IMG/VR virus record: IMGVR_UViG_2531839200_000014
Strand: one strand, 5' to 3'
DNA: 4,285 nucleotides
From: a virus
Lineage: Duplodnaviria; Heunggongvirae; Uroviricota; Caudoviricetes
Shown: piece by piece, positions 504 to 4,285 of the stretch
Layout: every line of letters begins with the position of its first letter
Numbering within the stretch: position 1 is the stretch's first letter
Program-made: the position numbers and the translations under genes
Notes under the pieces: model-generated
What the model was told of the DNA's origin: nothing
The model's database searches: none
What the model saw: the letters and a program-made list of their open reading frames with translations, nothing else

Positions 504-558
504 TTATGTAAATCTGATATTTTGCCAATGTTGTACGCACTGGCAGTAATCCAAATTC

Positions 559-593
559 AAGCCCGAGGTTTAAAGCCTTGGGCTTTTCTGTTT
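559..593 (+). terminator. Intrinsic terminator-like hairpin (10-bp stem with one G-U, 7-nt loop) followed by a T-rich tract
   Basis: Seen: AAGCCCGAGG (559-568) pairs with CCTTGGGCTT (576-585), loop TTTAAAG, then TTCTGTTTCTG. It lies about 55 nt downstream of the candidate promoter, so it could be a Q-modifiable pause/terminator. Confidence 0.4.
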
Positions 594-2364: not shown

Positions 2365-2497
2365 GGTGTTATTCCCGATGCTTTTTAAAGTTCGCAGAAT
2401 CGTATGTGTAGAAAATTAAACAAACCCTAAACAATGAGTTGAAATCTCATATTGTTAATATTTATTAATGTATGTCAGATGCGAAGGATCGTCACTG

Positions 2498-2563
2498 TAT
2501 TCCCGGATTAACTATGTCCGCAGCCCTGACAGGGAAACTCCTCTGCGGGAGTGTCCGGGAATA
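2498..2563. repeat. Nested inverted repeat / palindromic element in the intergenic region upstream of bor
   Basis: Seen: outer perfect 10-bp arms TATTCCCGGA (2498-2507) and TCCGGGAATA (2554-2563); inner arms CCGCAG (2518-2523) and CTGCGG (2543-2548); central palindrome CCCTG-A-CAGGG (2524-2534). No flanking T/A run, so it is not a canonical intrinsic terminator. Confidence 0.5.
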
Positions 2564-2655: not shown

Positions 2656-3066
2656 TTAGCGTGGAAAGATTTGTGTAGTGTTCTGAATGCTCTCAGTAAA
2701 TAGTAATGAATTATCAAAGGCATAGTAATATCTTTTATGTTCGTGGATATTTGTAACCCATCGGAAAACTCCTGCTTTAGCAAGATTTTCCCTGTATTGC
2801 TGAAATGTGATTTCTCTTGATTTCAACCTATCATAGGACGTTTCTATAAGATGCGTATTTCTTGAGAATTTAACATTCACAACCTTTTTAAGTCCTTTTA
2901 TTAACACAGTGTTATCGTTTTCTAACACAATGTGAATATTATCTGTGGCTAGATAGTAAATATAATGTGAGACATTGTGACGTTTTAGTTCAGAATAAAA
3001 CAATTCACAGTTTAAATCTTTTCGCACTTGATCGAATATTTCTTTAAAAATGGCAACCTGAGCCAT
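2656..3066 (-). CDS. Lambdap78 / YbcV-like (DUF1398-type) moron protein; 136 aa from the ATG at 3066, possible N-terminal extension to a TTG at 3189 (177 aa)
   Basis: Seen: the ORF is open from 3189 to 2656 on the minus strand. The codon at 3189 is TTG immediately after an in-frame stop, whereas the ATG at 3066 is preceded by GGAAGG about 8 nt upstream, a good RBS. Strongly AT-rich relative to the lysis genes. Its position and orientation (immediately rightward of bor, same strand) match the lambdap78/ybcV slot in lambda and DLP12-like prophages. Identification is by synteny and size. Confidence 0.7.
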
Positions 3067-3351
3067 TGGTAAAACCTTCCATGTGATACGAGGGCGCGTA
3101 GTTTGCATTATCGTTTTTATCGTTTCAATCTGGTCTGACCTCTTTGTGTTTTGTTGATGATTTATGTCAAATATTAGGAATGTTTTCAATTAATAGTATT
3201 GGTTGCGTAACAAAGTGCGGTCCTGCTGGCATTCTGGAGGGAAATACAACCGACAGATGTATGTAAGGCCAACGTGCTCAAATCTTCATACAGAAAGATT
3301 TGAAGTAATATTTTAACCGCTAGATGAAGAGCAAGCGCATGGAGCGACAAA

Positions 3352-3558
3352 ATGAATAAAGAACAATCTGCTGATGATCCCTCCGTGGATCTGATTCGTG
3401 TAAAAAATATGCTTAATAGCACCATTTCTATGAGTTACCCTGATGTTGTAATTGCATGTATAGAACATAAGGTGTCTCTGGAAGCATTCAGGGCAATTGA
3501 GGCAGCGTTGGTGAAGCACGATAATAATATGAAGGATTATTCCCTGGTGGTTGACTGA
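3352..3558 (+). CDS. Lambdap79 / YbcW-like small protein, 68 aa
   Basis: ATG at 3352 is preceded by GGAG about 7 nt upstream. The 68-aa length and its divergent position relative to the p78-like gene match the lambdap79/ybcW slot. Function unknown. Confidence 0.75.
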
Positions 3559-3722: not shown

Positions 3723-3917
3723 TCATTCTTCATCACTTTTAATTGATGTATATGCTCTCTTTTCTGACGTTAGCCTCCGACGGCAGGCTTCAATGACCCA
3801 GGCTGAGAAATTTCCGGACCCTTTTTGATCAAGAGCGATGTTAATTTGTTCAATCATTTGGTTAGGAAAGCGGATGTTGCGGGTTGTTGTTCTGCGGGTT
3901 CTGTTCTTCGTTGACAT
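3723..3917 (-). CDS. Small ribbon-helix-helix-like protein (YlcI/DUF3950-like), 64 aa
   Basis: 64-aa ORF with a basic N-terminus (TKNRTRRTTTR) followed by a beta-strand/helix/helix pattern (NIRFPNQMIEQINIALDQKGSGNFSAWVIEACRRRL) typical of CopG/Arc-type RHH DNA-binding proteins. It occupies the position of ylcI in DLP12-type prophages, between the ybcW-like gene and the packaging region. Confidence 0.65.
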   Translation of the reverse strand: MSTKNRTRRTTTRNIRFPNQMIEQINIALDQKGSGNFSAWVIEACRRRLTSEKRAYTSIKSDEE

Positions 3918-3933: not shown

Positions 3934-4285
3934 TGAACCGCCCCGGAAATCCTGGAGACTAAACTCCCTGAGAAAGAGGTAAACAGGATGACTAAAAATA
4001 CTCGTTTTTCCCCCGAGGTCCGTCAACGGGCAGTTCGTATGGTTCTGGAAAGTCAGGGCGAATATGACTCACAATGGGCGGCAATTTGTTCCATTGCCCC
4101 AAAGATTGGCTGTACACCAGAGACTCTGCGTGTGTGGGTTCGTCAGCATGAGCGGGATACCGGGAGTGGTGATGGTGGACTCACCACCGCTGAACGTCAG
4201 CGTCTGAAAGAGCTGGAACGTGAAAATCGTGAACTGCGCCGCAGTAACGATATCCTTCGCCAGGCTTCCGCTTATTTTGCGAAGG
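3934..4285 (+). mobile_element. IS3 insertion sequence, left end (partial; continues beyond the window)
   Basis: Left terminus beginning TGAACCGCCCCGG… at about 3934 (boundary placed from my recollection of the IS3 left inverted repeat), followed 54 nt later by the IS3 orfA start. The prophage sequence ends abruptly at this point. Confidence 0.8.
3988..4285 (+). CDS. insE: IS3 transposase OrfA (InsE-type HTH/leucine-zipper protein), 3'-partial
   Basis: Own translation from the ATG at 3988 (RBS AAGAGG 8 nt upstream): [99 protein letters not shown]…, which matches the IS3 OrfA sequence as I recall it. The ORF has no stop within the window, which is why it is absent from the supplied ORF track. 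Confidence 0.88.

Follow-up and report, generated by a model that had tools for sequence, protein, structure and literature searches.

The 66-bp nested palindrome at 2498-2563 forms, with a probability that we put at about 0.5, the central hairpin of a conserved and autonomous noncoding module that is a folded RNA of the + strand. On this strand, the module is sense to the late (pR') transcript, which depends on Q and proceeds from the lysis genes in the direction of the cos site and the terminase genes. The window, by which we mean the whole stretch of 4285 nt that was analysed, is the late region of a lambda-like prophage of E. coli O157 and is 99.6% identical to several O157:H7 chromosomes. 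Its genes and signals are the following:

Window start, left of the holin: 3' end of Q, followed by the pR'/tR' region
801-1118: holin
1105-1581: endolysin R
1578-2039: Rz/Rz1
2071-2364, - strand: bor
2417-2433, - strand: PhoP-box-like direct repeat TGTTTAgggttTGTTTA in the bor promoter region (repeat finder)
2656-3189, - strand: p78/ybcV homologue
3352-3558, + strand: ybcW/p79
3723-3917, - strand: ylcI-like DUF3950 gene
Right of the DUF3950 gene: IS3-family element

The same layout is found in lambda and in the K-12 cryptic prophage DLP12, where the bor-ybcV spacer is near-identical (98% mean column identity). The palindrome lies in this spacer, as the preliminary description of this DNA had it, and consists of three concentric inverted repeats exactly as claimed there, which both the sequence and a repeat finder confirm:

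2498-2507 and 2554-2563: outer arms TATTCCCGGA and TCCGGGAATA, complementary at 10 of 10 positions
2518-2523 and 2543-2548: inner arms CCGCAG and CTGCGG, complementary at 6 of 6 positions
2524-2534: central palindrome CCCTG-A-CAGGG

That such an arrangement is unlikely by chance also held, since, when the whole window was shuffled 1000 times with dinucleotides preserved, only 9 shuffles contained a comparable nested repeat (defined as a perfect inverted repeat of 10 bp or more whose loop does not exceed 60 nt and which encloses a second one of 6 bp or more). When the RNAs of both strands were folded, a check that had been proposed, the 66-mer proved more stable than its shuffles on either strand: -30.5 kcal/mol on the + strand (z = -4.4, with none of 200 shuffles as good) and -27.4 kcal/mol on the - strand (z = -3.3). 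Neither strand has a U-tract (+, ATTAATAACG; -, ACAGTGACGA), including directly 3' of the hairpin, where the + strand reads AUUAAUAACG and the - strand ACAGUGACGA, and a terminator scan was empty at 2498-2563. The stable, G+C-rich hairpin is present and the U-tract is missing; a standard intrinsic terminator is thus excluded, again in line with the preliminary description.

The structure nevertheless reaches beyond the 66 bp. An additional helix, P0, encloses the palindrome, and conservation continues up to position 2649, so that the palindrome makes up just the core (P1-P2-P3) of a more extensive module, whose parts in the window are:

2476-2649, + strand: entire conserved module; length about 174 nt in the window, 183-189 nt in most other phages
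2486-2492, + strand: 5' strand of P0, GGATCGT, pairing with 2571-2577; 98.8% paired (RNAalifold, pair counts)
2498-2508, + strand: 5' strand of P1, TATTCCCGGAT, the outer arm of the palindrome plus a closing U:G pair
2509-2517, + strand: 5' side of the asymmetric internal loop, TAACTATGT
2518-2523, + strand: 5' strand of P2, CCGCAG, the inner arm, pairing with 2543-2548
2524-2534, + strand: P3, apical mini-hairpin CCCT-GAC-AGGG on the central palindrome, a variable part
2543-2548, + strand: 3' strand of P2, CTGCGG
2549-2552, + strand: 3' side of the internal loop, GAGT, unchanged in all 82 variants
2553-2563, + strand: 3' strand of P1, GTCCGGGAATA
2571-2577, + strand: 3' strand of P0, ACGATGC
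2578-2618, + strand: middle segment, made in most phages of hairpin A and a CCCUCAU-GUCGCC linker
2621-2645, + strand: hairpin B, CCGGT ... ACCGG, with a purine-rich loop containing GGAAGAAA

A covariance model (R1) built on 82 variants aligns to the window over model positions 1-185 with a score of 142.5 bits (E 8e-42). The edges of conservation are sharp in the alignments, with ATGCG... at the left and ...GGAAGAAACCGGAC at the right; across the variants, conservation starts abruptly at (A/G/C)TGCG and stops about 185 nt further on at GGAAGAAAC-NGGA. Outside these limits, at least five unrelated sequence classes are found on the left and many on the right. The RNA is predicted to form one long irregular hairpin, in the order P0-P1-(asymmetric internal loop)-P2-P3, with two smaller hairpins after it. 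The folding energy of the module as a whole is unremarkable (z = -1.35 and -0.39) and the core hairpin alone stands out.

The arms were compared across lambdoid phages, as had also been suggested, using a set of 82 distinct variants, with helices defined by RNAalifold and inspection. They turned out to be conserved and to covary, with compensatory changes. Standard pairs occupy 96.6% of the pair cells, against 35-61% once the 3' partners have been shifted along by 1-3 columns. Two-sided changes occur at 12 pairs, against 5.6 +/- 1.6 in column shuffles, none of 500 of which reached 12, a significance that is inflated because the sequences are related and only modestly diverse (mean column identity, 77%). 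In P0 (consensus GUAUCGU / ACGAUGC from RNAalifold and inspection), C:G pairs change to U:G, and a single position shows U:A, U:G and C:G. The 11 pairs of P1 (97.9% paired) include three with two-sided changes (G:C to C:G, U:A to C:G, C:G to U:A): position 9 is G:C in the window and lambda and C:G in others, with U:G intermediates, and at position 4 U:A, U:G and C:G are all seen. P2 is 98.8% paired, with one position at which C:G and U:G are nearly equal in number (42 vs 38), and P3 carries the indels, 9 nt being deleted in the POCJ13 class and 1 nt inserted or deleted in other classes. The middle segment of the class formed by lambda and the window is shorter and divergent compared with most phages. 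Hairpin A takes forms as different as CCGCG/CGCGG, CUGUG/CGCAG, CAGC/GCUG and UCUCAU/AUGGGA (89% paired, three two-sided changes), and of the seven consensus pairs of hairpin B (95.6% paired) five show two-sided changes (GUCCUG/CAGGAC, GUCCGG/CCGGAC, CUCGA/UCGAG). Two further pairings were rejected: one between the 5' arm of P1 and UGCGGGGGUG in the hairpin B loop, which came from the single-sequence fold of one locus (L076) and finds no support in the window and lambda class, and CACCGG:CCGGUG, which lacks covariation support.

The variants also indicate which strand is selected. Starting from a Watson-Crick pair, one transition gives T:G, which is tolerated by a + strand RNA, and the other gives A:C, which is tolerated on the - strand only. 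At 23 column pairs, polymorphism between Watson-Crick and G:U pairs is of the kind expected for the + strand, and at 6 it is of the kind expected for the - strand (347 vs 26 when cells are counted). Every helix pairs better on the + strand, P1 for instance at 97.9% vs 81.0%. Since the unpaired columns show no transition bias (C/T at 11, A/G at 10), this asymmetry reflects selection rather than mutation pressure. To a DNA duplex, T:G and A:C intermediates would be alike; what is selected is therefore a single-stranded molecule of the + strand, most simply the RNA of the late transcript. We consider it highly probable that a + strand RNA is under structural selection. The suggestion that the palindrome is an RNA stability or processing element at the 3' end of the p78-like transcript can accordingly be kept in one respect only: a role at the RNA level is favoured, and the p78 transcript is not its bearer, being read from the - strand while selection bears on the + strand.

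In sequence, the loops are more conserved than the helices. In kink-turns, a C-stem is followed by a 3-nt bulge, tandem sheared G.A/A.G pairs and an NC-stem. The loop between P1 and P2 reads, in 77 of the 82 variants, 5'-AC / NNN / GA / C...-3' opposite 5'-...N / GA / GU-3', its 5' side being UA-AC-NNN-GA by column statistics; there is little or no variation at AC, GA, GA and GU, and free variation at the three bulged bases and at position 3n. Judged by its sequence, the internal loop thus fits a kink-turn in most family members. This is the stem, bulge and tandem G.A pattern of the kink-turns of SAM-I, of T-box leaders and of the rplJ leader, with variability confined to the positions that the motif leaves free. 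The likeness is one of pattern, and none of these RNAs was matched in Rfam. The class of the window and lambda is among the five exceptions, with GU in place of GA, G at 3n, and P2 lengthened by a U:G and a C:G pair. The conservation of the loops, together with the kink-turn-like pattern, suggests a specific partner, either a protein or a tertiary fold. For a simple exonuclease barrier, the unpaired segments are conserved beyond what is needed, which speaks for a function of a more specific kind, protein binding or tertiary folding for instance.

The module is widely distributed. When the spacer was compared by blastn with 50,697 phage records, only about 2479-2600 matched a second and larger group of phages, at 73-82% identity and with unrelated flanks; this group comprises Stx1 and Stx2 phages, YYZ-2008, POCJ13, ES18 and SPN3UB. 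With a consensus-type copy as the query, 438 of the 50,697 records were found, 390 of them with a full-length copy, and all are phages of Escherichia, Shigella or Salmonella. A pattern scan of IMG/VR gave at least 120 contigs with the module. It is present in 84% of complete E. coli genomes (4564 of 5426), with a median of 2 and a maximum of 10 copies per genome, and in ten E. coli records among the matches listed no annotated feature lies beneath the match. When one genome per species was scanned, genuine copies proved to be confined to Escherichia species and Raoultella; the other matches, which were the majority, are lambda control-DNA contamination. Covariance-model searches found the module missing from P22, HK97, N15 and phi80. 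It is therefore an accessory element rather than a universal part of lambdoid late operons.

Its position is constant. In 127 loci, Rz, the last of the lysis genes, always lies to the left and on the same strand, 5-14 nt away in the simplest arrangement; in YYZ-2008, the module begins 9 nt past the Rz stop codon. Next on the right comes cos (at about 20 nt), TerS (at 109 nt) or a - strand gene that ends at the boundary with its stop codon, and in many phages lambda-type cosQ/cosN lies within about 20 nt. The flanks themselves are diverse, with three unrelated types of Rz and at least four types of terminase. Morons have been inserted both to the left and to the right. Those that separate the module from Rz are bor, rha and ant; those that separate it from cos or the terminase gene are ybcV, ybcW, the DUF3950 gene and an HnrS-like sRNA, and HNH is found there as well. 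For example, the module follows rha in ES18, lies between rha and the terminase gene in POCJ13, and between bor and the DUF3950 gene in Lambda_2G7a. Many phages carry it without bor and without p78.

The late genes of lambda are described as a single 27-kb pR' mRNA, and a dCas12a roadblock placed in the nonessential + strand gene p79 is polar on the essential late genes and lethal, while roadblocks in bor and p78 are harmless (PMC10695390). It follows that late transcription crosses the module. As bor, p78 and p79 are all nonessential in lambda (PMC10695390) and the module is absent from the four phages named above, its role is probably dispensable for plaque formation. We propose that the module is made as part of the late pR' mRNA and would act in cis on this mRNA as a processing or stability domain. 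It may in this way mark the border between the lysis and packaging blocks, either as an entry site for RNase III or RNase E or as a barrier to 3' exonucleases. This putative cis role is put forward as tentative, with odds clearly below even. Its nearest functional counterparts would be irregular hairpins of T7 and lambda mRNAs that act as signals for RNase III or stabilise the 3' end. Like signals of the T7 R1.1 type and lambda sib, the module is a long irregular hairpin with an asymmetric internal loop, located between gene blocks and devoid of a U-tract. Cleavage of such signals leaves a 3' hairpin that stabilises the upstream message. The resemblance is one of architecture, and the module differs in its invariant kink-turn-like internal loop and in its two extra covarying hairpins. 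The stacking of P0 (7 bp), P1 (11 bp) and P2 (6 bp) across internal loops is a geometry compatible with RNase III, whose sites need about two helical turns of coaxial duplex and tolerate internal loops, without being diagnostic. REP/BIME stabilisers, such as that of malE-malF, are likewise intercistronic palindromes able to protect upstream mRNA from 3' exonucleases; REPs are, however, short, dispersed and found in many contexts, whereas the module has a single copy per phage at one syntenic position, and is far larger, with several covarying helices. A REP- or MITE-like dispersed repeat was rejected as an identity for it, since there is always one copy per lambdoid late region, after Rz.

The main rival of this cis role is a processed, trans-acting RNA: the module would be excised from late or read-through transcripts as a stable noncoding RNA that, for example, binds or sequesters a host or phage protein through its invariant loops (AUUAAC/GAGUGU, GGUGGAAGAAAC). 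The greater conservation of loops than of helices, the autonomy of the unit and its sharp boundaries would all suit such an RNA, as would the kink-turn-like pattern and the purine-rich hairpin loop, which seem typical of RNAs making protein or tertiary contacts. Furthermore, this region of EHEC prophages hosts regulatory RNAs, HnrS being next door (PMC13502914). Against it, the module has neither a conserved promoter nor a conserved terminator, the entries near the HnrS copies in the O157 Sakai table of Hfq-bound sRNAs do not include it, and a search near the module for a site complementary to the GGAAGAAAC loop gave nothing consistent, so that we regard a trans-acting RNA as unlikely, and less probable than action in cis. 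We hold equally doubtful the view that the module represents a class of folded regulatory RNA so far undescribed, with a length of about 185 nt, a kink-turn and a specific job in the late operon; if this were true, it could for example be a ligand- or protein-sensing switch, or else a modifier of polymerase or a blocker of Rho at the lysis/packaging border that would tune the ratio or the timing of lysis versus virion production. One version of such a job has a precedent in the put RNAs of the lambdoid phage HK022. A put-like or anti-Rho RNA would act on the transcribing polymerase or block the loading of Rho, keeping late transcription processive across a long untranslated stretch that holds opposite-strand morons and cos. 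The late operon has a single long untranslated stretch, at whose beginning the module does lie, and in all loci the module is co-oriented with late transcription. Like the put RNAs, it is a structured RNA of a lambdoid operon, able to act untranslated. The put sites, for their part, measure about 70 nt, have two stem-loops and lie just downstream of early promoters, whereas the module measures 175-190 nt, stands about 2 kb into the late operon in the window and is absent from many lambdoid phages; the two differ in position and size, and Rfam scans gave no put match. Many phages with the same layout do without the module, and the Q-modified polymerase is already resistant to terminators. In uninduced K-12 cells, hence without Q modification, a Rho-dependent termination region has been mapped on the + strand, 168 nt downstream of the module (PMC7815308, supplementary file 2), which would fit an anti-Rho function; on balance, we rate a put-like or anti-Rho RNA as quite improbable.

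Three explanations dispense with a selected + strand RNA, and taken together they remain unlikely. A DNA-level element (a symmetric protein-binding site, a cruciform or a patch of homology for the exchange of lysis and packaging modules) would account for the location of the module exactly at a mosaic junction and for its sharp boundaries, and recombination linkers have long been proposed for lambdoid phages. But a duplex would be blind to the difference between T:G and A:C, at odds with the 23 vs 6 positions reported above, and the compensatory changes keep the pairing and not the sequence. Moreover, arms that are interrupted and lie 46 bp apart would make a poor geometry for an operator or for cruciform extrusion. 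For these reasons, neither the operator for a dimeric regulator nor the cruciform that had been envisaged is retained. In the case of a regulator of bor, there is the added difficulty that many carriers possess neither bor nor p78, and that the arms, where they change, do so in a compensatory manner or by way of G:U intermediates that suit a single strand. The promoter region of bor, with its PhoP-box-like repeat, is located on the - strand at a distance of 60-80 nt downstream, and borD is a member of the PhoP regulon (PMC5740661); judging from its sequence, this repeat would be a better candidate regulatory site for bor than the palindrome. We thus give little weight to an element acting as DNA, about as little as to a put-like one. 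Less probable still is an action on the - strand, either on ybcV or the DUF3950 gene, whose transcript would be terminated, stabilised at its 3' end or processed there, or on bor, for which the module would be a promoter or an upstream element. It is true that - strand genes have their stop codons flush with the right boundary, that the 66-mer folds on this strand too, and that the HK629 record predicts a promoter, TGGACA-N15-TACAAT, inside its copy of the lambda class. Yet the wobble asymmetry favours the + strand in every helix, the module is found without a - strand neighbour, for example directly between Rz and TerS or cos, and the hexamers of the predicted promoter are not conserved outside the lambda class. 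The missing U-tract also weighs against a 3' end, and the K-12 Term-seq tables (uninduced cells) list none in 579,005-579,177, the interval homologous to the module, a result that counts against the cis role too. The hairpin half of the module does travel with iss, a bor-derived serum-survival gene, on some 580 large IncF plasmids of the ColV type, which carry model positions 1-104 only, adjoining this gene. This copy is cut after position 104, has an otherwise invariant base changed and has 3 of its 29 pairs broken on the + strand, two of these being C:A, that is, G:U if read on the - strand. Its sequence would look like relaxed constraint outside the phage late operon, in favour of the + strand RNA, although a single lineage is concerned; the plasmid copies are remnants of prophage linked to iss/bor.

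The third explanation attributes the conservation to a small protein encoded by the - strand (consensus ...NPVCIVFDYSRTLxQKEFPVGLRSWLMREYGDD...; the frame reads ...NPVCIVFDYSRTL...). Most variants keep this frame open (median open length, 59 codons), the deletion of the POCJ13 class, being of 9 nt, is in frame for it, and it is annotated as the CDS of a hypothetical protein in Lambda_2G7a and Chlobot. Nevertheless, its pN/pS of 0.64 falls inside the range of the five other frames (0.43-1.26). Its start codon and N-terminus vary by class, and its C-terminal third is in three different frames in the lambda/K-12, window/ES18 and L014 classes. Neither Pfam nor PHROG has a family for it. Covariation is also seen in hairpin B, which this frame does not cover, and the common polymorphisms are radical in the protein (Ser/Pro, Thr/Ala/Ser/Pro) and neutral for pairing on the + strand. 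Coding was therefore rejected as the source of conservation, and we see hardly any chance of its being correct. A + strand mini-ORF of 10 codons (ATG CGC ... CAT TAA) was rejected too, its start being missing or a stop following in lambda, K-12, ES18 and the 2G7a class.

Known elements gave no identity to the folded + strand RNA that we favour. Scans of the window and of seven diverse loci against Rfam 15 returned nothing at the module with E up to 1. The EHEC sRNAs (HnrS/EcOnc10-12, AgvB, AsxR, StxS) resemble the module in being noncoding and in occupying the late region or moron sites of the same prophages; they differ from it in measuring 50-70 nt, in having their own promoter or an intrinsic terminator, neither of which the module has, in binding Hfq, and in sequence. 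HnrS is a transcript of 66 nt that has an intrinsic terminator and carries a seed to which both the hha RBS and the 3' end of mazF are complementary. It was rejected as an identity because its sequence is different and because it lies, in YYZ-2008, about 130 nt from the module and on the opposite strand. The window holds no complement of the mazF 3' end, and an HnrS-like sequence was found elsewhere, on the opposite strand, in two loci (L002 and L016). An IHF site considered at AATCAAAAACGAT was set aside by eye, the TTR part of the consensus being unmatched.

Structured noncoding elements are familiar in the polycistronic mRNAs of phages, and the present family appears to be undescribed: a literature search that included sequence strings gave one match, which was unrelated. 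The module is carried by most E. coli genomes and by Shiga-toxin phages, in which it lies on the late transcript that also carries stx. If it controls the processing, the stability or the read-through of this transcript, it would bear on the timing of lysis, on burst size and on toxin release, and would offer a handle to engineer the expression of late genes. Whatever its function, it is a clean candidate for a new RNA family and a marker of the lysis/packaging junction in lambdoid phages. The genome of lambda is among the most thoroughly annotated, yet this block is unannotated in K-12 MG1655 and in the lambda-type records that we inspected, the sole exception among the latter being the promoter predicted in HK629.

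Within the lambda-class copy of the conserved structured module (the variant type shared by the window and lambda) in the HK629 record (L163 1515-1541), a sigma-70 promoter, TGGACA-N15-TACAAT, is predicted on the minus strand. It corresponds to window positions ~2493-2519 (-), where the hexamers are weaker (CGGACA and TACAGT), and hexamers of the HK629 type are absent from the module classes other than the lambda class.

Part of the module is also carried by plasmids. ColV-type plasmids retain its 5' 104 nt, ~170 nt upstream of the bor-derived gene iss, as exemplified by the IncF plasmid NZ_CP032263.1 (L168 3539-4102) and found likewise in ~580 other plasmids. In these copies, the phage homology ends immediately after P0, the outermost helix of the module's long irregular hairpin.

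An HnrS-like sRNA gene lies on the minus strand of two compared loci, L002 (~2690-2760) and L016 (~8610-8680), and consists of the complement of the mazF 3' end followed by a terminator hairpin and a T-run. In the Stx1 phage YYZ-2008, ~130 nt separate the module from this downstream gene, which is encoded on the strand opposite to it. The gene adds a further moron, or inserted accessory gene, to this junction. C4 antisense RNA and isrK are immunity RNAs of the P1/P7 type, and tandem Rfam matches to both occur at 3165-3777 of L076, a lambdoid viral contig that also bears the module.

In the window itself, the minus strand carries a direct repeat, TGTTTA-gggtt-TGTTTA (2417-2433), that precedes the start codon of bor by ~55-70 nt and has the form of a PhoP box; borD has been reported to belong to the PhoP regulon (PMC5740661). 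A perfect 9-bp hairpin, GCTGCCCAT-ATCG-ATGGGCAGC, occupies positions 2041-2062 in the gap where Rz and bor converge, with no clear U-tract on either strand.

Directly 3' of the Q stop codon, positions 507-586 (+) match the Rfam family isrJ weakly (30.4 bits, E 0.008), which does not reach the gathering score of 37. This stretch is where the short pR'-tR' transcript is synthesized (lambda 6S RNA; StxS in Stx phages), so IsrJ of Salmonella may belong to this type of RNA.

At the right end of the window, the cos-proximal sequence of lambda is replaced by an IS3-family element (left end at ~3934-4285; IS1203 in RefSeq), whose insertion point lies 16 nt upstream of the ylcI-like DUF3950 gene. In the closest O157 genomes, the match to the window is broken into 2-3 pieces that span 5.2-6.5 kb. 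The scan of genome contigs also returned ~25 exact lambda matches (L128-L162), in assemblies of Pseudomonas, Cohnella, Kitasatospora, Flavobacterium, Pedobacter and others; the contigs measure ~3.5 kb or ~48.4 kb, and these matches look like lambda control or spike-in DNA that was not removed from the public assemblies.
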